Of a stretch of 64,000 nt of DNA, positions 141-19,719 are shown piece after piece. The translations under genes were made by a program, and so were the position numbers. Origin of the DNA: Escherichia coli (GTDB lineage Bacteria; Pseudomonadota; Gammaproteobacteria; Enterobacterales; Enterobacteriaceae); the NCBI RefSeq assembly GCF_044324875.1, contig NZ_CP172185.1, one strand, 5' to 3'. A model generated the notes under the pieces. The model made no database searches, had not been told where the DNA came from, and saw nothing but the letters and a program-made list of their open reading frames with translations. Every line of letters starts with the position of its first letter. Position 1 is the first letter of the stretch.

Positions 141-566
141 TGCACAATAAGTCCGGACTGCGGTAAATACCCATCCGGACTTATTGCCTGCTCAAACCAA
201 CGTTAATAGCCATCCTAAAATAGACGAAGCGCCAGCCAATTCCCGCAGCGCATCTAGTGTCATCAGGATTATAAATACCCAAATAAACGGATTCATTTTG
301 CTGTGTGTCATTTATTACTGATGCGCAGTTATTCTACCGCTTTGTAAGTAGTAAAATAGTTAACCCGATCAAGACTACTATTATTGGTAGCTAAATTTCC
401 CTTAAGTCACAATACGTTATTATCAACGCTGTAATTTATTCAGCGTTTGTACATATCGTTACACGCTGAAACCAACCACTCACGGAAGTCTGCCATTCCC
501 AGGGATATAGTTATTTCAACGGCCCCGCAGTGGGGTTAAATGAAAAAACAAATTGAGGGTATGACA

Positions 567-875
567 ATGAAAAAAGTATTAGCTCTGGTTGTTGCCGCTG
601 CTATGGGTCTGTCTTCTGCTGCCTTTGCTGCAGAGACTGCGACCACACCTGCTCCGACTGCGACGACCACCAAAGCAGCGCCGGCGAAAACCACACATCA
701 TAAAAAACAGCATAAAGCAGCACCTGCCCAGAAAGCGCAGGCGGCTAAAAAGCATCATAAAAATGCCAAAGCTGAACAGAAAGCTCCTGAACAAAAAGCG
801 CAGGCAGCGAAGAAACACGCCAAGAAACACAGCCATCAGCAACCGGCAAAACCTGCTGCACAACCCGCAGCGTAA
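567..875 (+). CDS. asr: acid shock protein Asr
   Basis: ORF 540-875; signal peptide then Ala/Lys/His-rich low-complexity protein matching remembered Asr; start moved to MKKVLAL. Confidence 0.9.
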
Positions 876-967
876 GTTATCAATAGTAATGCTGGCGCGC
901 CCCCTCGCGCCTGAAAATTACGGTGCTAAGCGGATAACGTTTAGCACCGCCTTTAGCGGAGGGTAGT

Positions 968-1051
968 ATGGTGGGCCGTTATCGCTTTGAGTTCATTCTT
1001 ATCATCCTTATTTTATGCGCACTGATTGCCGCCCGTTTTTATCTTTCCTGA
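968..1051 (+). CDS. ydgU: small hydrophobic protein YdgU-like (27 codons)
   Basis: Hand-translated short ORF M(V)GRYRFEFILIILILCALIAARFYLS between asr and ydgD; below ORF-track size cutoff. Confidence 0.5.
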   Translation: MVGRYRFEFILIILILCALIAARFYLS

Positions 1052-1150
1052 TCGTAGTTATCTGATTTTACTCCCACTTTCATCCCGTCCCGTCTATAGT
1101 ATTTATGAGGGTTTGCTTTTAATAATCATAATTACCCACCAGAGTGTGAT

Positions 1151-1972
1151 ATGCGTACAACCATTGCTGTAGTGTTGGGTGCAATTAGTTTGACGTCTGC
1201 TTTTGTGTTTGCAGATAAACCAGACGTTGCCAAATCGGCAAACGATGAGGTCAGCACCCTGTTTTTTGGTCATGATGATCGTGTGCCAGTGAATGACACG
1301 ACCCAATCACCGTGGGATGCGGTTGGCCAACTGGAAACGGCCAGCGGCAATTTATGTACGGCGACGCTGATTGCACCCAATCTGGCATTAACGGCAGGAC
1401 ACTGTTTATTGACGCCGCCAAAGGGTAAAGCCGATAAAGCGGTGGCGCTGCGTTTTGTGTCAAATAAAGGTCTTTGGCGCTATGAGATCCACGACATAGA
1501 AGGCCGCGTTGACCCGACACTGGGAAAGCGGTTAAAAGCAGATGGGGATGGTTGGATTGTTCCTCCCGCAGCTGCGCCGTGGGACTTCGGTTTGATTGTG
1601 CTACGTAATCCCCCTTCTGGCATTACACCATTGCCGTTATTTGAGGGAGATAAAGCCGCGCTTACCGCCGCATTAAAAGCGGCAGGTCGTAAAGTGACTC
1701 AGGCGGGATACCCTGAAGATCATCTCGATACGTTGTACAGTCATCAAAACTGTGAAGTGACTGGCTGGGCGCAAACGTCGGTGATGTCGCATCAGTGCGA
1801 TACCTTGCCGGGTGACAGCGGTTCGCCTCTGATGTTGCATACCGATGACGGCTGGCAATTAATTGGGGTGCAAAGTTCGGCTCCTGCCGCGAAAGATCGC
1901 TGGCGCGCCGATAACCGGGCCATTTCTGTTACCGGTTTTCGCGACAGGCTGGATCAACTGTCGCAAAAATAA
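1151..1972 (+). CDS. ydgD: trypsin-like serine peptidase YdgD
   Basis: 273 aa; signal peptide; TAGHC and GDSGSP catalytic motifs. Confidence 0.85.
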
Positions 1973-2010
1973 TGTTCAAACGCTGCCCGACAGCGCGGGC
2001 AGCGTGTTCA

Positions 2011-2340
2011 TCAGGCAAGTTTCACCATGATCATTCCAGCCAACAGCAAGACCAGGCCAATCCAGCCTTTACGATTTAACCGTTGACCAAACAAGATCCA
2101 ACCTGCGGCTAACGTGGCGGCAATACCAAACCCGCCCCACAATGCATAAGCGACAGACAAGTCGATCCCTTTAACGGCCTGAGAAAGCGCACTAAAGGCA
2201 GCCAGCACCGCCGCCAGAGAGAGCACGCCAAATATTTTGCGACGAAAGCCGTCAGAAAATTTCAAAAAAACGTTAGCAACGATTTCCAGCACGATTGCCA
2301 ATGCCAGCCAGGCGGCGTGAACCCATTCAAACTGCGCCAT
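2011..2340 (-). CDS. mdtI: spermidine export protein MdtI (SMR family)
   Basis: 109 aa four-helix SMR-type membrane protein; overlaps mdtJ. Confidence 0.9.
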
Positions 2341-2692
2341 GGTTCACCTCCAGTTCAGGTTTACGCGCTTTACGGGTACCTGATTTGATCAACACAATCC
2401 CGGCCACCAGGGTGGTTAACCCGGCAATTTTCATCAGCGATAAACTTTCGTCGAATAACAAAACGCTAAACAAGGTAATAAATAAAATACCGATACCTTC
2501 CCACAGCGCATAAGCCACGCCTAAGGCGATCTTTTTAACGGCGAAAGAGAGAAATATATACGACAGAGAAATCATCACCAGCATTAAAATAAAGCCGCCA
2601 TTTCCCTCACTGACGCTCGCCCATTTCATGGACAGCGTACCGGTAATTTCTGTAGCAATAGCCAGACCTAATAAAATCCAATAAATATACAT
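2327..2692 (-). CDS. mdtJ: spermidine export protein MdtJ (SMR family)
   Basis: 121 aa SMR-type membrane protein paired with mdtI. Confidence 0.9.
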
Positions 2693-3103
2693 TGTCCTTC
2701 TCCTGCAAGAGAATTATTTTAATTTTCGCTTAATTCAGCGAAACCAAAGTAAAGTGGTCAAGCTCCGCGCATGGCGCAAGCTTAGGCAGAAGTAAGGACT
2801 AAAGCGCGTTGCGCCAGTGTTGCTCACCTACGAGCAAGATAGTGGATGAGGTACGAAGATGGGTAAATGTAGAAAATAACGCCCTGAACAAATTGTCCAT
2901 AATATTACAATTATCCGCAGTGTTGCTTCTCGTCATCGCGGATGATAATTGTCCTCGGTAGTTGAACACGCCTGATTTGTATCATAGCTTAAGAATTAAC
3001 TCAAAATATTTTCACTTCTTTACCTGAGCGGTTTGATTTTCGTTATGATGACGGAGCGAAAAAGACATTATTATTAGCAAAGGAAGAAAAAACGGGGACA
3101 AGC

Positions 3104-3268
3104 ATGGCAAAGCCGATCATCACGCTCAATGGCCTAAAAATCGTCATTATGTTGGGAATGCTGGTCATTATTCTCTGCGGTATCCGTTTTGCCGCCGAGA
3201 TCATCGTGCCGTTTATTCTCGCATTATTTATTGCTGTTATATATAACTTATTTCACTTAACACATTGA
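3104..3268 (+). pseudogene. tqsA: tqsA 5' fragment (first ~45 codons of the AI-2 exporter), truncated by island insertion
   Basis: Translates [46 protein letters not shown] then runs into island sequence and stops after 9 more codons. Confidence 0.8.
3232..3240. repeat. attL core, left copy of the 9-bp direct repeat TGCTGTTAT
   Basis: Identical 9-mer at 18813-18821; tqsA reading frame continues across the two copies. Confidence 0.7.
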
Positions 3269-3310
3269 TTTAATTAAATAATTTACACTACAAAAAGTGC
3301 CAAAAATCGC

Positions 3311-3375
3311 AAATTAACTACACCATTAACTACACCGTTCGGCGCACTGTATGAAACAACGTGGAACAAATAGGC
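3311..3375. promoter_or_regulatory. attL-proximal arm repeats: 2x AACTACACC (11-bp period) and 2x GAAACAA/GGAACAA (10-bp period)
   Basis: Direct repeats read from sequence; related repeats near attR; approximate coordinates. Confidence 0.5.
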
Positions 3376-3554
3376 ACAAGAAATATAAAGGCGGGTAATT
3401 TTTAGGGGGCGTTAATGTCGATATGGGGATCCACATATCGAGATTGATACCTGGCTTTTTTTCCGGTTAACCTTTAATCAGGCTGGTGGGCTTTACCTGT
3501 TCTGTAGGAGTGGTCATTATGACCATTCAGCCAATGACCTTAATCAGAATTTTT

Positions 3555-3582
3555 CGCTAAAAAATGACGTTGGCCACGTCAT
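3555..3582 (-). terminator. Rho-independent terminator at the end of the island leftward operon
   Basis: On minus strand: stem ATGACGT/ACGTCAT with 5-nt loop followed by UUUUUU; downstream of last island gene. Confidence 0.55.
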
Positions 3583-3652
3583 CCGGAAAGCACAAAATCA
3601 CGTCGATTTTTAATGGATGGTTAAACCGTCTTTATCTCGATGTCCGTACGTA

Positions 3653-3943
3653 TTACGTACGCAGTCGTTCCGGCTTCTTCCAGTGGTACGTATTTTTCGC
3701 GCTCTCCCTCCGTTGTTGAGAACGGCGACGGTATGCCAGCAACTCAAGGACTCTTGTTCGTATGTTGCGCATATCCACGCCGTTAAGCTCAATACCATCA
3801 CGGCGCATCACCTCCGCAACAACACGCACATAATTTTCGGCGGTCACGCTGTCCGGCTGCGTGGCCTGTTCGTCATGCTGCTGGCTGATTCCGGTAACGC
3901 GGCGGATTAATCCCAGTAGTTCGGCTTCGCTCATTCTCGTCAT
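3653..3943 (-). CDS. hypothetical protein, last gene of packaging operon
   Basis: 96 aa ORF; start overlaps terL stop by 4 bp (translational coupling); no recognisable motif. Confidence 0.55.
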   Translation of the reverse strand: MTRMSEAELLGLIRRVTGISQQHDEQATQPDSVTAENYVRVVAEVMRRDGIELNGVDMRNIRTRVLELLAYRRRSQQRRESAKNTYHWKKPERLRT

Positions 3944-5601
3944 ACCCCATCAAACGCCGCAAGCCGCTCTTTGTGGCTGTCGCTCATATCGAATGCAAAT
4001 TCCTCATGCTCTGCCTGGAATGTGCCAAACGCCATCAGCGCCGCAACGCTCGGGTCTATCTTGTTGGATGATTTTTTCTTGTTCGGCTTGATATTGGCGT
4101 TCGCGTCACTCTGCATCACAACATTACTCATTGACCAGGCCAGCACCGGATCACCACGATGCACAATCACCTTCCGGTTAACAAAAACTTCGAACGATTT
4201 CGCCGCCGGACTGAAACGAAGGTATGTTTGCGGGAACGGCTCCACCTCAAATCCCGCCCCCTGTAGCTGTGTTCTCAGGTGAGTGGCGTTCCATGTATCG
4301 AAGCCCACCAGCCTGATACTGAAATTCTCTGCATCCGCCATGATGTCATCACGGATACGGTCATAATCAATGCAGTCACCCGGTGTTGTGCGTATCCAGC
4401 CAGCCTTTACCCACTGGCGATAGATGGCGCGGTTTTTATTGGCGGGGTTCTGTAGCTGAAATTCCGGCAGATAGTGACGGGAAACCAGCATAATTTTTTT
4501 ACCGACCGGGAAGGCATAGCACACGCTGGAAATATCGCTGGTTGATGATAAGTCCAGCCCCGCGTAGCACTCCTGCCCGTATAAATCCGCCTCCGCGAAC
4601 GTTCCGGCGCACTCCGCCCATGCACCGTTACCCATCCACGGCGTAGCCCCCTGACACCAGATATTGAATCGCTTGGTGAGCATTTCCACCCACTGCGACG
4701 GAATACCCCGCGCTTTCTGGATGGTTGAGGCCAGTTTTTCACGATCGACGGAAACATCGATATTGGGATTCGCCTTTATCCACATCGCCGGATCGTCAAC
4801 CTCGCTTTCATCATCCAGCTCGTAAATCAGCACGAACATGGATTCGTTCACCTCTTCACCATCCAGTATCTGGCAGCAATAGTCATAGTGTTGTTTACAG
4901 GCTGAAACAACGTTGCTCCCCGATGTGGTGATGGCAAATAACAGCCCCTCCGGACGCGCCCCCATTCCCAGCTCAAGCGCGGAATAAACCCCGTTGTCAG
5001 GGTGCAGGTGATATTCATCCACAATGGCAAGACTCGGGTTTGTACCTTCAATGGTTGCCGCTTTTGCTGCCAGTGGCTTTAACAGGCTGTTGGTTTTCGC
5101 GTGTATCACCTTGTGTGCCTGAATATTTACCCGCTTTCGTAACGGTCGGGATAAAAGGCACATCTGACGCGCATCATCAAACACGATCCGCGCCTGATCA
5201 CGACTCACGGCGGCGGTGTAAATATCCTGCTGCCCGTTTTCCATAACCAGAAACCAGTTAGCCAGGATAGCGGCGACCGTGGATTTGGCATTTTTTCGCG
5301 GTACTTCAATGAATGCGCTGGTGTATTTGCGCCGTCCGGTGGCCTTAACCTTAAAGCCCAGGATGCACGCAAAGGCGAACTGCTGCCACGGCTCCAGCTC
5401 AATGGGGCTACCGCGCATTGCGCCTTTTACGTGCGGACACACCCTGGAAAAGGCAATAAACCGCTCCACGACCTCCGGATCGAACGTGTAAAGGGGGTTT
5501 TCAAGGTCAGAAAAATACCGTTTAACAGCCTGTTTCAGTCGTTTACAGGCCGTAATTTTGCCGTTTTTTACGCCTTCTGCGTACTCATGCCAGGCGGTCA
5601 A
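3940..5601 (-). CDS. terL: terminase large subunit
   Basis: 553 aa; ATPase N-terminal region and nuclease C-terminal region typical of phage TerL; adjacent to TerS and HNH. Confidence 0.85.
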   Translation of the reverse strand: MTAWHEYAEGVKNGKITACKRLKQAVKRYFSDLENPLYTFDPEVVERFIAFSRVCPHVKGAMRGSPIELEPWQQFAFACILGFKVKATGRRKYTSAFIEVPRKNAKSTVAAILANWFLVMENGQQDIYTAAVSRDQARIVFDDARQMCLLSRPLRKRVNIQAHKVIHAKTNSLLKPLAAKAATIEGTNPSLAIVDEYHLHPDNGVYSALELGMGARPEGLLFAITTSGSNVVSACKQHYDYCCQILDGEEVNESMFVLIYELDDESEVDDPAMWIKANPNIDVSVDREKLASTIQKARGIPSQWVEMLTKRFNIWCQGATPWMGNGAWAECAGTFAEADLYGQECYAGLDLSSTSDISSVCYAFPVGKKIMLVSRHYLPEFQLQNPANKNRAIYRQWVKAGWIRTTPGDCIDYDRIRDDIMADAENFSIRLVGFDTWNATHLRTQLQGAGFEVEPFPQTYLRFSPAAKSFEVFVNRKVIVHRGDPVLAWSMSNVVMQSDANANIKPNKKKSSNKIDPSVAALMAFGTFQAEHEEFAFDMSDSHKERLAAFDGV

Positions 5602-5941
5602 GCTCGTCCTCTTCCTCTGTTTCCGGTGGATTTCTGCGGCGGCTTACCGGGTCAAAACCCAGCAAAGAAGCCATTTTGATCATTATTCTTTCCGCGTCAG
5701 CCTTTGCGCTCAGGGCGGGGTTTCTGCTCTCGCTGCCCTGACTGTTAACAATGCTGAACCCGCGCGTGGCAAGGTCTTCGACGGCTTTGCGGTATATGGA
5801 GTAGTTAACGCAATACAGCTCCAGATTGCTCCAGTCGGCGGGAGTAAGGTCTTCCCGTCCGGAAAGCTGGCGCGATTTTTCCTTCCACTGCCTGACCGCG
5901 ATTTCATCCAGGTAAGCGGGGGCTTTTGGTGGTCTTGCCAT
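5585..5941 (-). CDS. terS: terminase small subunit (P27-family-like)
   Basis: ORF 5585-5986; likely start MARPPKAPAYL; small basic DNA-binding protein immediately upstream of terL with overlapping stop/start. Confidence 0.7.
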   Translation of the reverse strand: MARPPKAPAYLDEIAVRQWKEKSRQLSGREDLTPADWSNLELYCVNYSIYRKAVEDLATRGFSIVNSQGSESRNPALSAKADAERIMIKMASLLGFDPVSRRRNPPETEEEDELDRLA

Positions 5942-6064
5942 GTTCTTTTTTCGCCCAATTATTTTCAAAAAAATTCCCGTGCACAAAAATTTGAGCAGGC
6001 GGTCGGTTCTGGGCGGGGTCGGGTTCGTCCTGAAAACTCCCCCCCACCCCGTCCGGCTGCCTCA

Positions 6065-6247
6065 TCAGCGATTGCGGAAACATTCCATAACCTCGCGGTC
6101 ACGGTCGTTTAATCGCGTCGCTGTGATGCGTTCTGCGCGTCCTGATGCTTTATCTTTATGCCCTGTTTCCTGTGCCTTCCATGCGTCACGCTGCCTTATC
6201 AGTCCACGAATAAGGCTGTTTTGTTCCCGTTCATTCATCAGCGTCAT
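6065..6247 (-). CDS. small hypothetical protein between HNH and terS
   Basis: Internal start MTLMNE of ORF 6065-6481, fills the gap between HNH and terS; no similarity recognised. Confidence 0.3.
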   Translation of the reverse strand: MTLMNEREQNSLIRGLIRQRDAWKAQETGHKDKASGRAERITATRLNDRDREVMECFRNR

Positions 6248-6671
6248 ACATCCAGTTATTGCGGTTGGCTGCCCGTTCTTCCTCCTCACGGAATCCGCCA
6301 ACTGCACGCTTGTTTTTTGTGGCCGGATCAAGCCATTTCGTTTTCTGGTTATGACACGCCTGACACAATGGCTGATGATTCCACTCAGGCCAGAAGAGAA
6401 CATCATTACCGCCATCGATGGGGATAATGTGATCCACCACCACGGCGGGCGTGTATATTCCTTTTTCCAGGCAATGCGCACATAACGGGTTTTTACTCAG
6501 GTACATAGCGCGGTATTTCTCCCACTGCCTCGTATACCCTCGCTCCCTGCTGCTGCCTCTCCGGCTGTCCTGCTGCTGGCGTGCGCTGCGTCTGTGCTCC
6601 TCACACTTGCCGGACTTCACGCGCCTGTTGCAGCCTGGTTGTGTGCATCGTCTCAATGGTTGCCACGGCAT
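6231..6671 (-). CDS. HNH endonuclease (packaging-associated)
   Basis: 146 aa; Cys-rich with HNH-type His/Asn motif (DHIIPIDGGND...NHQPLCQACHNQK); directly upstream of terS as in HNH-dependent cos packaging systems. Confidence 0.8.
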   Translation of the reverse strand: MPWQPLRRCTQPGCNRRVKSGKCEEHRRSARQQQDSRRGSSRERGYTRQWEKYRAMYLSKNPLCAHCLEKGIYTPAVVVDHIIPIDGGNDVLFWPEWNHQPLCQACHNQKTKWLDPATKNKRAVGGFREEEERAANRNNWMYDADE

Positions 6672-6967
6672 CAGTACACCCCCACATCACGATAAACCGA
6701 CCAGAGCGCGGAAATCGTCAGGGGAATTTCTTTTGTATCGGTATCGCCAAGCGTTGTCCGGTACTCGTACAGTTGCGAGATGTACATCAGGCAACCAATT
6801 TTTATTGCAGGGGTAAATTCCAGGCCGTCATCAAAACGCCTGCCAATATGCTTCTGGCATACCTCCAGCGCCGCGCTTATGTATGCCTGAATCAGTGTGT
6901 CTTCTGTGTTACCATCTATGCGGCAGTGAAGTTTGGCCTCTTCCAGGGTTATTTTTTCTGCTGTCAT
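6671..6967 (-). CDS. head-tail connector protein (gp6-like)
   Basis: 98 aa; size, position and sequence pattern of phage gp6-like connector proteins. Confidence 0.6.
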   Translation of the reverse strand: MTAEKITLEEAKLHCRIDGNTEDTLIQAYISAALEVCQKHIGRRFDDGLEFTPAIKIGCLMYISQLYEYRTTLGDTDTKEIPLTISALWSVYRDVGVY

Positions 6968-7302
6968 TTTTCTGTACCCACCTTTGCCAGAATTTCCAGC
7001 CGGGTTCTTTTCGCATCAGGTAAGGGGATCCCGATGATATTAAGCGTGCTCCCGGCAAAAGCGCCGGTAAGCACTTTCAGGCGACTGGCGGCGGATATGT
7101 CGCCACGATAGCGAACCCATACCCGAATCGTTGCAGGTGCGGTTTCTGCGCCTGCGGTCAGTAATTCCCGTCCGCTGATCCCCTTGACCTCTGCCCAGAT
7201 GGTTTCCCCTTCCGTCCATATCTGCTGGATCGCACCTGACGGCAGGCGCTGTGTGGTAAATGTCATAATCGTCACCCGGTCCCGCATCTTTCCGGCTATC
7301 AT
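6964..7302 (-). CDS. head closure / head-tail adaptor protein
   Basis: 112 aa; position next to portal and connector; overlapping stop/start with neighbours. Confidence 0.55.
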   Translation of the reverse strand: MIAGKMRDRVTIMTFTTQRLPSGAIQQIWTEGETIWAEVKGISGRELLTAGAETAPATIRVWVRYRGDISAASRLKVLTGAFAGSTLNIIGIPLPDAKRTRLEILAKVGTEK

Positions 7303-8516
7303 TCGTCACCGCCCTTACTGTTCTTGCTGATTGTCACTTCCTGCTTCCATGCCTGGCTGAACTCGTCGCCACCTTCACGCGGCGGCATTCCCTCACGCTC
7401 ACGGGCTTCGTTCGGATTGATGATCCCGTTCTTAATCCCTTTCTCATACGTGGCGTAACGTTCGGTAGGGGTGGCGCGTAATAAATCGGCTGAATCAAAC
7501 TCAACCAGATAACGGGTACCAGGTACGGGAGAAGCCACCAGCAAAGCAGCCTTGATTTGCTGTTCGAAGTTCGCCAGCCACGGGCGCATTGTCATGGTCA
7601 GAAACGCGCGGCTTGCCTCACTGAAATTGCTGTAGGTGCTGTTGCTGTATTCCTGCAAAAAAATCGGCGAGACGTTGAACATTCGGGCGATGTCTTCAAT
7701 GGTAAAGCGACGGGAGGCCAGCCATTCAGCATCCTGATTACTCATGCCCAGCTGCTGATAGCTCATACCCCCTTCAAGGATGGGCGTTTTTCCGGCGTTT
7801 CTGGCCCCTTTGTAGCGTTCCAGTGCGGCTAATGCCTGTTTGCCCTTCACGCCGTCCAGCCATTCGCCTGACGTGATAACCCCTGCCGCCATCATGCCAT
7901 CACGCATCACGCTCGCGCCGTGGCGTTGTTGGGCCAGCCCAAGCCCCAGCGATTCGCGGCAGATGGTTACAGGTGAGCGCCCCATAAAGCCGTCATCCGT
8001 GGAGTAACGAAGGTGGAGAACCTCCCACGGTAAATAGTTGCGGGTGTTTCCGGTGTAGGCGTCAGTGATGCAGTAGCGCCAGTTATGCTCACCTGTCTGC
8101 TCCACGTTCACCGACTGCGGCGGGTAAGGATGTAAAGCCACCGGAAAACCATCACGCCCCCACTGAATAACCGCATAAGCATTACCGTTTAACAGGCAGT
8201 GGCGGATCATCATTCGCTTAAACTGGTAGGGGGTTTGCCATGCGTTCGGGCGCTCGTTGAGGATGTGATCGACCGGATGAGAATCAAGCCACTCGCGGGC
8301 CTCCTTCCCCTTCTCATTGCGTACCAGGTACAGGTAACACGGCATGGTAGCCACCGCCTCAGAGATGACCGTCACGGCGTTCATGACGGCGGGCAGTGAT
8401 TCCGCTGTCCCCGATGATACGTACTCACCCGCCCCCGTGTTCGATGTGCCCGCCAGCGCCATAAATTCATCAAGCGTCATGCTGCGCTGCTCTTTTTTTC
8501 TTCTGAAAAGCCACAT
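7299..8516 (-). CDS. portal protein (HK97 family)
   Basis: 405 aa; portal-like sequence; immediately followed by prohead protease. Confidence 0.8.
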   Translation of the reverse strand: MWLFRRKKEQRSMTLDEFMALAGTSNTGAGEYVSSGTAESLPAVMNAVTVISEAVATMPCYLYLVRNEKGKEAREWLDSHPVDHILNERPNAWQTPYQFKRMMIRHCLLNGNAYAVIQWGRDGFPVALHPYPPQSVNVEQTGEHNWRYCITDAYTGNTRNYLPWEVLHLRYSTDDGFMGRSPVTICRESLGLGLAQQRHGASVMRDGMMAAGVITSGEWLDGVKGKQALAALERYKGARNAGKTPILEGGMSYQQLGMSNQDAEWLASRRFTIEDIARMFNVSPIFLQEYSNSTYSNFSEASRAFLTMTMRPWLANFEQQIKAALLVASPVPGTRYLVEFDSADLLRATPTERYATYEKGIKNGIINPNEAREREGMPPREGGDEFSQAWKQEVTISKNSKGGDE

Positions 8517-8517
8517 A

Positions 8518-9090
8518 TCACACCCCCGCTAAATCCACCCACCAGCGGCGATTATCCGCACGCGGCATTTTTTCGGGGTGCTGCTCATACAGGGAACGGC
8601 GGGCCAGCTCCACGCCAGAATCGGGGTAAGCCGGTACCGATGTAACGGTAATTTCGTACAGTTCCGCCACCAGCACGGTACGAACGCATGGATCTGTTGT
8701 GGTATCCCATACATCCTTACGGGAGCGAAAGCCAAAGCTCATGCCGGATATATCACCGCGTTTAACCAGTTCGATAACGTCGCGCCCTGTACTGGTATCC
8801 GGTGGGGTCAGTTCAAAGCGTAACCCTGTTTCGTCCTCTTCCAGTTTCAGCGTGCCGGAACGGGTGCGCCCCAGTAACATGCTGTGGTCATGCTCATACA
8901 GGCCGCGAACGTCATTACCCGCCGCAAGCCATTCAGTAAACGCCCCCCGCTGGAATTTTTCGTAAAACTCACCCCATAACAGTTCTGAAAGCTTATCCCA
9001 GCGAACAACGTAGCCCGTCAGCGTACCGGCTCCGCTCGTGGTGATTTCCGATGACCGGATTTCCATACTCTTCATAATTTTTTCACCCAT
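8518..9090 (-). CDS. prohead protease (HK97 family, S78-like)
   Basis: 190 aa; typical HK97 prohead protease N-terminal pattern; between capsid and portal genes. Confidence 0.8.
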   Translation of the reverse strand: MGEKIMKSMEIRSSEITTSGAGTLTGYVVRWDKLSELLWGEFYEKFQRGAFTEWLAAGNDVRGLYEHDHSMLLGRTRSGTLKLEEDETGLRFELTPPDTSTGRDVIELVKRGDISGMSFGFRSRKDVWDTTTDPCVRTVLVAELYEITVTSVPAYPDSGVELARRSLYEQHPEKMPRADNRRWWVDLAGV

Positions 9091-9129
9091 AAAACACTAA
9101 AGGGGCTTTTAAGCCCCTTCTGTATGCTG

Positions 9130-16268: not shown

Positions 16269-16316
16269 TCACTATCAGCGCCGTGGTGTGAGGTACTGCG
16301 GCGCATTGTTTTAAAG

Positions 16317-16517
16317 GTGATAATTATGAATAACCAGGAACTACAAAATAAAGCATTATCAATTATCATGCGCCAGCGTGAGAAAACCCGCAGGGAAATA
16401 AATAAGGCATTAACCCGCACTGAAAATCTTAAAGTTCCTGATAAGTTCGCCCTTGATCCTTTTGTCGAGAAATACCCTCGGCGCTTAAAAGCAAACAAAA
16501 ACCGCCCACCTGGCTGA
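16317..16517 (+). CDS. hypothetical small basic protein
   Basis: 66 aa ORF downstream of RHH gene; followed by two terminators. Confidence 0.45.
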   Translation: MIIMNNQELQNKALSIIMRQREKTRREINKALTRTENLKVPDKFALDPFVEKYPRRLKANKNRPPG

Positions 16518-16550
16518 CAATCCACCAGCAAGCCAGGACACTGATCACAT

Positions 16551-16579
16551 TGGCCACCGTGACAGGTGGCCTTTTCTTT
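16551..16579 (+). terminator. Rho-independent terminator
   Basis: GGCCACC..GGTGGCC stem followed by TTTTCTTT. Confidence 0.55.
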
Positions 16580-16675
16580 GCCCGTTATCCGGCAATTGTG
16601 GCGCTTCGTCACCTGGCTGATATAATTCCACTGCTTATATTCATTTTTTGCGCAGTAGGTTAATTGTTCAGAAAG

Positions 16676-16704
16676 GCGGCTCCTTATCGGGGCCGCTTTT
16701 TTTA
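16676..16704 (+). terminator. Rho-independent terminator
   Basis: GGCGGCTCC..GGGGCCGC stem followed by T7. Confidence 0.55.
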
Positions 16705-16844
16705 TGCCTGAAAAACCGCGATTTTGTTGTTTTTCAGTTTCACCAGGCCGAACGAAGCCCCGCCCCTGTTCGGGCGTATATCCAGTCTTCATGGTTAAAT
16801 CTCTGTATTAGTGGATGGGTGGCGGCTGTGTGCCGCCAGTCTTT

Positions 16845-17033
16845 TTAGTGAACTGCCTCGCAGCTTTCCTTCCATGCCAGAACTTCGGATAAAGACCAGC
16901 CAACGGAACGACCGCCCAGCTTACGCCGTGATGGGAATTGTCCGGCCTTTTCCAGGCGGTAGCGGCATGAGCGGCTAAGTCCTGTTAGCTTTTCGCATTC
17001 TTTTTCACGTATAAACCGATCAGTACTTAACAC
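16845..17033 (-). CDS. alpA: AlpA-family phage regulatory protein (transcriptional activator / excision factor-like)
   Basis: 62 aa; helix-turn-helix pattern matching remembered AlpA proteins of P4-like islands; adjacent to integrase. Confidence 0.85.
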   Translation of the reverse strand: MLSTDRFIREKECEKLTGLSRSCRYRLEKAGQFPSRRKLGGRSVGWSLSEVLAWKESCEAVH

Positions 17034-17193
17034 TATTGCCCCCTTTCGTTTCTTAAAGAGTTATTTCGTGTTCTATTGCGTTGGTATGTGTCTGATTGTG
17101 TCAGGGTGATTCAGAGTTGGCAAATGTTGGTGGCGGGTATTTTACAGAAACGGGGTAATTTTAATAAAAAACATTTTAATTCAGTATTATGCA

Positions 17194-17226
17194 AAGGCAT
17201 AAAATCTCGTTTTATGCCTTTTTTCT
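17194..17226 (+). terminator. Orphan hairpin plus T-run between int and alpA
   Basis: AAGGCATAAAA..TTTTATGCCTT stem followed by TTTTTT on + strand; no + strand gene upstream. Confidence 0.35.
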
Positions 17227-17315
17227 CACTATTTAAAGCGTTATTCGCTAATGTATAAAAAACCAGTTGAGCATTAAAAATCAGCAACTTATAAGTCTGT
17301 ATACTTTTTCGCCTC

Positions 17316-17360
17316 TTGTTCGTGGTTGTTCCACGTTGTTTCACATTGTTCGCCGTTGTA
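17316..17360. repeat. Four tandem 10-bp GAACAA-type repeats (minus-strand orientation) between int and alpA
   Basis: Reverse complement reads GCGAACAATG TGAAACAACG TGGAACAACC ACGAACAAG. Confidence 0.6.
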
Positions 17361-17407
17361 TCTGTGTGCTTATCCAGTATGCGCATACTGAAAAAACACG
17401 AAAAAAA

Positions 17408-18637
17408 TTATTTTCTTCTGGCTACTGGTAGCGTGGTTACGTTTTCATGTGCTCCCGCCAGTATCTCCAACCGCTCCACCCACATATCCAGCGCATTGCG
17501 TTTCGCATCCAGATAACGGGAATGATTATAAACTCGCTGCATTCCTGGCATCTGGTGGCCTGTAAGCTGCTCCACGACATGCGGATCAACGCCTAAATCG
17601 TTCAGCATGGTTGTAAAGGTGCGCCGGATGTCATGCAGTGACCAGTGAGGGTGTTTAAGCCTCCTGTGCGCTAATCTTCCATACTGCGATACGCTGGCCT
17701 CCTGTTTCACTTCCCCCAGCAATAAGCCCGTGTGCCTGTTCTGCTCCACCAGCTGCGTGACGAACGGCAGTATCGCTTCCGGTATGGGCCGGAATATGGC
17801 TACCTTCGTTTTGCTGTGCTCCTTCGGAACGGTCCATAGCATTTCGGTAAAATCCCACTCCCCGATCTCCGATAGCCTCAGTTCTACTGTCCTGGCTCCG
17901 AAGACAATCAGGAGGCGGATTAGTGCGACGTAGTAAGGGGAAAATATTTTTTTATCCAGCGCCTGCAATAACTCGCCCAGTTCTTTGGTGCTTAAGACAC
18001 GTTCGCTTATATCCGGTTTTTTCCCAACGTCCGCCACGTTCAGATCGTCCAGAACGTTGCTGATTGCATAGCGCCGCCTACGGCAAAACTTAAGCGCCTG
18101 TTTGCACGCCTGTAGCACGAATCCGGCAGTAACAGGCGTTCGCTTTGCCACCTGGTCAAAACAGGCCAGCCAGTGCCGTAGCTCGCATTTATCCAGCGGC
18201 ATAGCACCAATGTGCTGTATTACGTGATTATTAACTCGCCTTTTCAGGGCGATATAATCCACGCGGTTTTCCTTTACGTAAGACTCAAGCCAGTAGGTGA
18301 GCGCATCGCCAACCGTTACCGGCTTTAACGCTTCCTGTACGGCGTAATTCATCTCATGGCGTGGATTTTTCCCCTCCGCCAGCCATGCGCGACACTGGGC
18401 GGCTTTTTCCCTGGCTGCTTTCAGGCTCAGATCAGGATAATTTCCCAGCTTAATACGTTCCGGTCGTGTCTCTCTTCCCGTTCCTGCCCTGTAAGTGAAA
18501 TACCAGGTTAATATCCCTGATGTTAAATATTTCACGCTCAGATTTCCGCCATCGCTATAAAACGTGTTTTTCTCCGCTGGCTTACCATGAAGTTTCCTTA
18601 GCAAGGTATCGCTCAGTTTGTTCATTGCTCTGCTCAC
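17408..18637 (-). CDS. int: tyrosine integrase, P4 type
   Basis: 409 aa; N-terminal arm-binding domain pattern and C-terminal catalytic region (HDIRRT...Y); terminal position next to attR. Confidence 0.9.
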   Translation of the reverse strand: MSRAMNKLSDTLLRKLHGKPAEKNTFYSDGGNLSVKYLTSGILTWYFTYRAGTGRETRPERIKLGNYPDLSLKAAREKAAQCRAWLAEGKNPRHEMNYAVQEALKPVTVGDALTYWLESYVKENRVDYIALKRRVNNHVIQHIGAMPLDKCELRHWLACFDQVAKRTPVTAGFVLQACKQALKFCRRRRYAISNVLDDLNVADVGKKPDISERVLSTKELGELLQALDKKIFSPYYVALIRLLIVFGARTVELRLSEIGEWDFTEMLWTVPKEHSKTKVAIFRPIPEAILPFVTQLVEQNRHTGLLLGEVKQEASVSQYGRLAHRRLKHPHWSLHDIRRTFTTMLNDLGVDPHVVEQLTGHQMPGMQRVYNHSRYLDAKRNALDMWVERLEILAGAHENVTTLPVARRK

Positions 18638-18661
18638 GCTTTACCCCTTGTTTACGAAAAA

Positions 18662-18790
18662 GTGACTACACCAGTGACTACACCGATCGTTGCACAAAGG
18701 GCTACAACGTGAAACAAGCTGGAACAAGAAAAATCACAAATTTGTTTATAATCAAAAACATAATGAACAAACTGAAACATTATGAAACGG
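18662..18790. promoter_or_regulatory. attR-proximal arm repeats and int promoter region: 2x GTGACTACACC, then GAAACAA/GGAACAA and TGAACAAAC/TGAAAC repeats
   Basis: Direct repeats read from sequence immediately upstream of int and inside attR arm. Confidence 0.5.
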
Positions 18791-18812
18791 CAAAAAACAC
18801 TAATTGATAAAA

Positions 18813-18821
18813 TGCTGTTAT
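18813..18821. repeat. attR core, right copy of TGCTGTTAT
   Basis: Identical to 3232-3240; tqsA sequence resumes. Confidence 0.7.
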
Positions 18822-19719
18822 TCTTAACCCGCTGGTGCAACACATGGTCCGCTGGCGTGTGCCGCGTGTACTGGCAGTGTCGATTTTGATGACCATCATC
18901 GTGATGGCGATGGTGTTGCTATTAGCTTATCTGGGTTCCGCGCTCAACGAGTTGACGCGGACGTTACCGCAATATCGCAACTCTATTATGACGCCGCTGC
19001 AAGCGATTGAACCGTTGTTGCAACGCGTAGGGATTGATGTCTCAGTTGACCAACTGGCGCATTACATTGATCCGAACGCGGCGATGACGTTGCTCACCAA
19101 CTTATTGACGCAGTTATCTAATGCCATGTCATCAATATTTTTATTGCTGCTGACGGTGCTGTTTATGCTGCTCGAAGTGCCACAATTGCCCGGAAAATTT
19201 CAGCAAATGATGGCGCGTCCGGTTGAAGGGATGGCGGCGATTCAGCGTGCGATTGACAGTGTTTCTCATTATCTGGTGCTGAAAACAGCCATCAGCATCA
19301 TCACCGGCCTGGTCGCCTGGGCGATGCTCGCCGCACTCGATGTTCGCTTCGCTTTTGTCTGGGGATTGCTGGCCTTTGCGCTTAATTACATCCCGAATAT
19401 TGGTTCAGTTCTCGCGGCAATCCCCCCTATCGCTCAGGTATTGGTGTTTAATGGCTTCTACGAAGCGTTGCTGGTGCTGGCGGGATATCTGCTGATTAAT
19501 CTGGTCTTCGGCAATATTCTGGAGCCACGCATCATGGGGCGTGGGCTGGGGCTTTCCACGTTGGTGGTATTTCTGTCGTTGATTTTTTGGGGATGGTTGT
19601 TAGGACCGGTGGGTATGCTGCTTTCCGTGCCGTTGACAATTATTGTCAAAATTGCGCTTGAACAAACAGCGGGAGGTCAAAGCATCGCCGTTCTGTTAAG
19701 CGATCTCAATAAAGAGTGA
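18813..19719 (+). pseudogene. tqsA: tqsA 3' portion (AI-2 exporter lacking its first ~45 codons)
   Basis: Sequence continues [13 protein letters not shown]...; in-frame stops (TGA TAA) immediately upstream in island DNA; ORF track 18835-19719. Confidence 0.8.

Follow-up and report, generated by a model that had tools for sequence, protein, structure and literature searches.

A probable capsid-forming satellite of the EcCIEDL933 lineage inserted in tqsA of Escherichia coli

A discrete island interrupts tqsA

The 64,000-nucleotide stretch of the Escherichia coli contig NZ_CP172185.1 analyzed here (hereafter the window) carries at positions 3242-18822 an island of 15,581 bp, counting one copy of its terminal repeat, which is the single large insertion relative to E. 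coli K-12. This block is very probably an intact capsid-forming phage-inducible chromosomal island (cf-PICI) of the EcCIEDL933 lineage, integrated by a P4-type tyrosine integrase at codon 46 of tqsA. [quoted passage not shown] These elements were described in 2022-2023 and occur in 13% of Enterobacteriaceae genomes (PMC10085698). Gene identities were assigned by PHROG, NCBIfam and Pfam profile searches over the 28 open reading frames (ORFs) that tile the island, and comparisons with EcCIEDL933 were made protein by protein against the copy located between roxA and phoQ in the EDL933 chromosome. Three other EDL933 regions considered as EcCIEDL933 were set aside, as they contained ordinary host genes and tailed lambdoid prophages. 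A first-pass annotation, made from the letters of the window, had read the block as a cf-PICI-like satellite and not as a decayed prophage, and this view is upheld by the gene order and size shared with EcCIEDL933 and by full-length protein identities of 88-98%.

K-12 aligns at ~98% identity to window 146-3240 and 18813-64000, and nothing aligns between these blocks. Specifically, the K-12 tqsA gene, which is uninterrupted, matches the window up to position 3240 and is picked up again at 18813. The ends of the island are formed by a 9-bp direct repeat, TGCTGTTAT, as attachment (att) cores: attL lies at 3233-3241, inside tqsA and at the point to which the K-12 gene runs unbroken, and attR at 18814-18822. 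The gene is split after codon 46 into a 5' fragment (3104-3241, plus strand), preceded in the left flank by mdtI-mdtJ, and a 3' fragment (18823-19719, plus strand), followed in the right flank by pntB-pntA. The first-pass annotation had placed an island at 3241-18812, which is exact to within the att repeat, and the interruption of the mdtJ-tqsA-pntB order by a discrete block that it proposed is borne out by the alignment with the empty-site tqsA of K-12. No tRNA gene is involved at the insertion. The G+C content of the island (50.4%) is the same as that of the flanks, and the island would therefore go undetected from composition alone. The remaining 45 kb of the window are collinear with K-12 (~98%), hence no prophage lies next to the island.

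The island supplies no substitute N-terminus for tqsA, the gene of an autoinducer-2 (AI-2) exporter, and both halves are pseudogenes in the RefSeq annotation of related strains. In a published list of genes that integrative elements keep intact or disrupt, tqsA is included (PMC7192596). In the literature searched, no paper names tqsA together with PICIs, and the published attB sites of cf-PICIs number six. Among 5,426 complete E. coli genomes, 246 have the same tqsA attR junction, and a non-functional tqsA is therefore a frequent condition tied to satellite carriage. As tqsA is inactivated by the island, carriage may alter AI-2 export.

A complete head and packaging module

The head half of the island lies on the minus strand in the order capsid, protease, portal, Hc1, Ad1, HNH, a 61-amino-acid (aa) ORF, TerS, TerL and a 96-aa ORF. 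The eight head and packaging proteins each match the corresponding PHROG family with E values from 1e-29 to 1e-180. They comprise the HK97-fold major capsid protein (9130-10287; phrog_10, E 3.6e-87; 97.9% identity to EcCIEDL933), the HK97-family prohead protease (8518-9090; phrog_80, E 1.9e-67; 97.4%), the portal (7299-8516; phrog_12, E 1.7e-118; 95.0%), the gp7-like head closure protein Hc1 (6964-7302; phrog_25; 54%), the head-tail adaptor Ad1, a gp6-like connector (6671-6967; phrog_40; 68%), the HNH endonuclease, a packaging cofactor (6231-6671; phrog_144, E 4e-43; 88.4%), the P27-family terminase small subunit TerS (5585-5941; phrog_83, E 3e-38; 88.0%), and the terminase large subunit TerL (3940-5601; phrog_9, E 3.5e-180; 93.1%). 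This arrangement, with morphogenesis genes first and hnh-terS-terL after them, is the proteobacterial cf-PICI order and is the same in EcCIEDL933. The capsid protein differs from that of EcCIEDL933 by eight substitutions and has an N-terminal propeptide and an SxGxxAD cleavage and maturation motif (STGVPAD) at residue 93. The same motif is present in the EcCIEDL933 protein, whose shell has T=4 geometry and a diameter of 47.5 nm by cryo-electron microscopy.

Two small conserved genes complete the module on the minus strand. The 61-aa orf61 (6065-6250; phrog_3173; 93.3% to EcCIEDL933), between the HNH gene and terS, is by gene order the presumed counterpart of EcCIEDL933 gene 1792, mutation of which severely lowers transfer (10.1101/2022.09.08.507074). 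The conserved hypothetical orf96 (3653-3943; phrog_1561) follows terL and is 78% identical to its EcCIEDL933 counterpart. Upstream of terS, a 123-bp intergenic region rich in G/C tracts (5942-6064, minus strand) is a candidate cos site, with 84.6% identity to EcCIEDL933 and 99% to the related cf-PICI LH50-c.

No match to tail, baseplate, holin or endolysin families was obtained for the 28 island ORFs with PHROG. The stretches left uncovered by these ORFs are at most 411 bp long, host genes stand on both flanks, and the small proteins include a single early one with a hydrophobic segment (one, weak) and none with multiple transmembrane segments. Most gene junctions overlap by 1-20 nt, and all of the 20-plus conserved genes are full length without frameshifts. 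The att cores and the origin iterons are also intact. The first-pass annotation had described the block in these same terms, listing a full head module (including a delta domain in the capsid protein, two completion proteins, HNH, TerS and TerL), no tail tube, tape measure, baseplate, holin or endolysin genes, and intact, tightly packed genes. The profile searches agree with it for every gene that it named. The proteins that it had called structural hold up by homology as capsid, portal and terminase, and neither the island nor its flanks contain tail or lysis genes that would belong to it.

A PICI-type left half and likeness to EcCIEDL933

The regulatory and replication half runs along the minus strand in the order integrase, AlpA, Icd-like protein 2, a non-coding cassette, Icd-like protein 1, four small ORFs, RepA and an iteron origin, and onward through two small ORFs, a single-stranded DNA-binding protein (SSB), PerC and orf82, with orf157 on the other strand before the capsid gene. 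The P4-type tyrosine integrase (17408-18637, minus strand; Pfam Arm-DNA-bind_3 and Phage_integrase) is 91.2% identical to that of EcCIEDL933 and 96.6% identical to the integrase of another tqsA-site island. The AlpA-family regulator or excisionase (16845-17033, minus strand; phrog_2790, E 1.3e-17) has 93.5% identity to EcCIEDL933 AlpA. Replication functions are represented by a 468-aa RepA-type helicase/initiator (12873-14279, minus strand; Pfam AAA_25, E 1e-41; phrog_2850), by SSB (11698-12108, minus strand; phrog_44, E 4e-41; 97.8% to EcCIEDL933), and by a replication origin at 12672-12856 with nine GTGGGGA iterons, eight on one strand and one inverted. Nine of the 14 copies of this motif in the window fall within these 185 bp directly after rep, against an expectation of 6.1 +/- 2.7 for the window. 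A PerC-family transcriptional activator (11406-11687, minus strand; phrog_994 and phrog_10396), so named by RefSeq in two related islands, follows SSB. Profile searches and the iteron count thus corroborate the P4-type integrase, AlpA, Icd-like proteins, RecA-like replication ATPase with iterons, and SSB of the first-pass annotation. Since the same RepA type is kept in three other cf-PICIs (L001, L002 and that of E. coli 06-00048), replication competence is assumed.

The island and EcCIEDL933 share the gene order int-alpA-icd-...-rep-ori-ssb-perC-capsid-protease-portal-Hc1-Ad1-HNH-small orf-terS-terL-orf, a similar size (15,581 bp versus 15.4-15.5 kb), and the lack of tail and lysis genes. Protein identities are 88-98% over the full length or nearly so for capsid, protease, portal, HNH, TerS, TerL, SSB, AlpA and integrase, and the packaging-module proteins overall range from 54 to 98%, all full length, in line with the 50-90% or higher similarity to EcCIEDL933 that marks the family. 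The two elements differ in att site (roxA/phoQ in the prototype, tqsA in the island) and in replicase, which is a 710-aa DUF927 protein in the prototype and the 468-aa AAA_25 RepA type in the island. In addition, the island carries a C4 RNA and second icd cassette, orf157, orf101, and other small early ORFs.

EcCIEDL933 has been dissected experimentally (10.1101/2022.09.08.507074). Capsid formation, exclusive self-packaging and dependence on AlpA were demonstrated, and mutation showed that every packaging gene is needed for transfer, with the capsid genes of the helper dispensable, its tail genes essential, and phage tails the sole structural input. The island displays every feature of a cf-PICI that a sequence can reveal, including the absence of the components forbidden by the SatelliteFinder model (PMC10085698). 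Its 15,581 bp agree with the ~15 kb of the family, a length that would fit a small T=4 capsid. The AAA_25 helicase, iterons and SSB constitute the replication module, as judged by Pfam and PHROG profiles. With classical Gram-negative PICIs (EcCICFT073 type, for example L008, L016 and L017) the island shares the int-alpA-icd-DUF4222-rep-ssb-perC left half and the same a1b1-C4-icd cassette. Those elements, however, lack portal, adaptor/connector and TerL (which the SatelliteFinder PICI model forbids), carry only capsid-remodelling genes with TerS or Rpp, and need helper capsids, portal and TerL, whereas the island has the full set, with portal, Ad1, Hc1 and TerL of its own.

A C4 antisense RNA cassette upstream of icd

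A 420-bp segment of the island (15282-15702), absent from LH50-c, JNE151685 and EcCIEDL933, contains a C4/P4-CI-type antisense (immunity) RNA at 15472-15559 on the minus strand (Rfam RF01695, 72.3 bits versus a gathering threshold of 45, full length over model positions 1-87). This RNA was absent from the first-pass list. Upstream of it on the same strand lies a copy of the C4 target (a1b1/seqA-like and isrK-like; 15585-15676), which scores 44 bits with RF03163, slightly below the gathering threshold of 46.7, and 35 bits with RF01394. The isrK-like element terminates in a hairpin followed by U7, which resembles a terminator. On the downstream side, Icd-like protein 1 (15247-15420, minus strand; NF033153, 50.6 bits) has 57 aa counted from the ATG at 15420 and a Shine-Dalgarno sequence, AGGAG, at 15433-15429.

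The 10-nt C4 loop UCCUGUAGUG is a perfect complement of 15439-15430 (pair UCCUGUAGUG / CACUACAGGA), a target that overlies the Shine-Dalgarno sequence AGGAG of icd1, 8 nt ahead of its ATG. A second loop, CUGUCAA, pairs with both 15470-15464 and 15641-15635, and the stretch CUGUAGU pairs with 15627-15621. When duplex energies were compared with shuffled controls, the observed value was reached in 0 of 500 shuffles for the downstream site and in 18 of 500 for the upstream site, so the energy control supports the downstream site only. Most likely, the C4 RNA would repress translation of icd1 and, via coupling and polarity, the downstream replication genes until induction.

The layout resembles the immI region of phages P1 and P7 (c4-icd-ant), in which target boxes also stand on both sides of c4 and the downstream box lies on the icd ribosome-binding site, and it resembles the CI/seqA immunity of P4 as well. 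It differs from immI in that the genes after icd are satellite replication genes and not an antirepressor, and in that the cf-PICI case is known from its sequence. That Gram-negative PICIs give matches to C4 and isrK, which are related to P4 CI and seqA, had already been noted (PMC10111431). At 87-97% identity, the a1b1-C4-icd cassette occurs in 144 of the 5,426 genomes, the inspected examples being mostly classical PICIs. The idea that the cassette is unique to this cf-PICI was rejected, as the cf-PICI of strain 06-00048 has the same one. A cf-PICI with an antisense-RNA immunity cassette could show how such satellites stay silent.

The C4 region is annotated by RefSeq within a 154-aa "Icd-like protein" coding sequence in three islands (L008 13991-14455, L016 12991-13455, and strain 06-00048, L018 13356-13823). 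Since the Rfam match falls inside this coding sequence each time, its start has probably been called too far upstream, with the true icd beginning after the RNA.

A divergent head-tail joining allele

Within the packaging module, Ad1 and Hc1 are divergent alleles. The DNA of the module is elsewhere 86-97% identical to EcCIEDL933, and the largest drop is at Ad1 (71%) and Hc1 (58%). The Hc1 protein is nearer to that of phages than to that of the prototype, with 69% identity to the complete, tailed and temperate Klebsiella phage ST101-KPC2phi6.3, 63% to Escherichia phage Fraca, 57% to HK106, the known helper of EcCIEDL933, and 54% to EcCIEDL933 itself. Gene swaps have shown that Ad1 and Hc1 decide which phage tails the capsids of cf-PICIs can use, and near-identical cf-PICIs with different adaptor/connector pairs exist (He et al., 10.1101/2025.02.11.637232). 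As tail choice is set by these two proteins and the island has a different allele of both, we predict that its tail range differs from that of EcCIEDL933. The predicted partner has a neck of the HK97 gp10/gp11 type, and the likely tails are those with a gp10/DUF3168 neck, as in Klebsiella phage ST101-KPC2phi6.3. As the packaging modules of the island and the prototype are nearly isogenic (capsid 98%, portal 95%) and differ in Ad1 and Hc1, they could serve as a natural pair for mapping tail specificity.

Distribution and mosaic origin

Counts were made over the 5,426 complete E. coli genomes and phage comparisons over 50,697 phage records. Islands of similar architecture occupy tqsA at ~90% identity in many Shiga toxin-producing E. 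coli and other strains, and related islands with the same ends are also found at other att sites. The recurrence of the tqsA junction together with the use of other att sites points to repeated mobilisation and not to decay in place. No complete genome carries this exact mosaic.

The closest relative in a complete genome is the LH50-c cf-PICI (NZ_CP100500.1, roxA/phoQ site), in which the segment from portal to orf83 is 99-100% identical, including Ad1 (100%), Hc1, orf157, PerC and SSB, and RepA is 99.4% identical. LH50-c differs in its integrase (89.7%) and att site, in lacking two segments, among them the C4/icd1 cassette, and in its divergent-strand genes, which are HicB-like in LH50-c and YlcI/YnfO plus orf66 in the island. 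As the integrase is nearest to those of tqsA-site islands and the packaging genes are nearest to LH50-c, the island is a recombinant of modules circulating among cf-PICIs and PICIs. None of the 50,697 phage records covers more than 13% of the island, which fits the published distinctness of cf-PICIs from phages.

Two of the records deposited as phages, LR881103.1 (vB_KppS-Ant, 16.5 kb) and OR544139.1 (Pasteurella phage Pmp8, 15.3 kb), share the adaptor with the island, and vB_KppS-Ant also shares terminase genes. Both are likely cf-PICIs that were sequenced from induced particles and deposited as phages. In E. coli 06-00048 (NZ_CP015229.1, 1158496-1184319), a cf-PICI interrupts terL of a lambdoid prophage, and the two halves of that gene stand on either side of it. 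It has the same RepA and C4 cassette and an orf157 homologue, and no separate head closure gene is annotated in it. This is a helper-embedded layout like that of helper-embedded PICIs (PMC10111431).

Status of the island and competing explanations

By orthology with the tested prototype, the life cycle of the island may be pictured as follows. A helper phage would switch alpA on, and AlpA would in turn promote excision and expression of the leftward operon. The RepA-type helicase and SSB would replicate the circle from the iteron origin, while the island's own capsid protein, protease and portal would build small (T=4-type) procapsids. HNH, TerS and TerL would then cut the DNA and package one island genome per head, after which Ad1 and Hc1 would close the head and form the docking surface for a siphovirus tail of the helper or of another phage. 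Cell lysis would be supplied by the phage. The C4 RNA would act as an added layer of RNA immunity that has no counterpart in the prototype.

Several points weigh against an intact and mobile cf-PICI. The island is known here from its sequence, its excision, replication and particle formation being predicted, and no helper phage is found within the 64-kb window. A cos site was not identified beyond the intergenic candidate upstream of terS, and a promoter scan of the regulatory region returned 4 sites versus 2.9 +/- 1.8 expected, which is not above chance. The replicase differs in type from that of the prototype, the AAA_25 ATPase having no primase domain, and the function ascribed to the C4 RNA in PICIs is by analogy with P1 and P4. 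These points bear in part on the first alternative, namely that the cf-PICI looks intact and is nevertheless an immobile fossil fixed in tqsA, having lost a cis site or a regulatory link. Besides the cos site and promoters, its mosaic origin might favor this, as parts drawn from tqsA-site islands (integrase), a roxA/phoQ-site island (packaging) and classical PICIs (C4 cassette) may mismatch. On the other hand, the intact genes, att cores and iterons speak against a fossil, and the 99-100% identity of the packaging module to LH50-c at another att site indicates recent movement. We therefore regard an immobile island as unlikely.

A decayed prophage that lost its tail and lysis modules by deletion would account for the HK97-like, phage-derived head genes. 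However, the ends of the island are an integrase-specific att duplication and not a deletion scar, islands of this 15-kb layout are found in more than one genus and at several att sites, and the regulatory and replication half is of PICI type (AlpA, Icd, DUF4222, PerC) and not lambdoid, with no phage record exceeding the coverage given above. The modules expected of a prophage (tail, lysis, and regulation of lambdoid or another phage type) are missing from the island, as are scars of their deletion, and this origin is very improbable. Least probable of all is that the island, as a P4-like satellite or a hybrid of P4 and PICI, diverts the capsid assembly of its helper instead of building its own shell: the P4-type integrase, AlpA, Icd-like proteins and C4/CI-type RNA are present and are all that the island shares with P4-like satellites, but genes for a capsid protein, protease, portal and TerL, none of which P4 has, are part of the island, its capsid protein is 97.9% identical to the EcCIEDL933 shell protein, and no match to Sid, Psu, Delta or the P4 alpha primase was found.

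An intact cf-PICI of the EcCIEDL933 lineage accordingly remains the best explanation. As such, the element typifies a family of satellites that is abundant and has been well described. Its Ad1/Hc1 allele, C4 cassette and orf157 are modestly interesting, and each of them has precedents. The element as a whole adds little; it is useful as a comparison case, provided by nature, for the open points of cf-PICI biology.

The accessory protein orf157 and other island genes

The 157-aa conserved accessory protein orf157 (10603-11076, plus strand) is encoded in an AT-rich stretch and is syntenic in cf-PICIs (L002, L014 and the island of strain 06-00048). It has no Pfam, PHROG, NCBIfam or PADLOC match. 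Homologues of ~157 aa with 52-97% identity occur in Escherichia, Enterobacter, Serratia, Raoultella, Rouxiella and Edwardsiella. Four contexts were inspected, all of them cf-PICIs, and in each the gene lies between the capsid gene and the replication half on the opposite strand, a place that is the same in E. coli and in Edwardsiella piscicida. A structure model of high confidence shows a fold that also occurs in proteins fused to antitoxin-type DNA-binding domains; one of the fold matches is named SocA-like Panacea protein. With its conserved position, orf157 is a candidate for a satellite-specific function.

The first-pass annotation had proposed that the ORFs of unrecognized function are defence or helper-interference cargo. 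This proposal found no support: PADLOC gave no credible defence match for ten such ORFs, and the prototype EcCIEDL933 does not interfere with its helper (10.1101/2022.09.08.507074). A ZorE match on orf66 (PADLOC, 14.5 bits, E 0.004) was regarded as noise. A broader reading would combine RNA-gated induction in addition to AlpA, retargeting to other tails through Ad1 and Hc1 (possibly those of another genus), a counter-defence or helper-manipulating role for orf157, and restoration of tqsA upon excision. As a whole we hold this combination to be tentative and rather doubtful. If it were true, the restoration of tqsA on excision would link the state of the satellite to the export of a quorum signal, AI-2.

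The remaining genes belong to the early and replication region. A YlcI/YnfO-family protein (NF041551) and orf66 are divergently oriented at 16089-16517 on the plus strand. Icd-like protein 2 (15707-15913, minus strand; NF033153, 64.9 bits) is the orthologue of the single Icd of EcCIEDL933 (85% identity). The early operon at 14276-15257 (minus strand) encodes, according to profile searches, a DUF4222 protein, orf77, orf73 and orf79. Two conserved hypotheticals, orf101 and orf83 (12118-12671, minus strand; phrog_27268 and phrog_1231), lie beyond the origin, and the hypothetical orf82 (11112-11360, minus strand; phrog_1957) follows PerC. A further candidate, orf91 (17111-17386), was not counted as a gene, as it is unannotated in related RefSeq islands and has no family match.

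Variation in the flanks

Two minor differences from K-12 were observed outside the island. In the rsxC region (window 53168-53591), the overlap between two alignment blocks with K-12 is 424 nt on the window side versus 328 nt in K-12, with extra matches at 96-nt offsets, and the window seems to have one more 96-bp tandem unit in rsxC than K-12. In the ydgA-uidC intergenic region, ~150 bp of K-12 (L010 16500-16653) have no counterpart at window 36144-36172, which represents a small indel.

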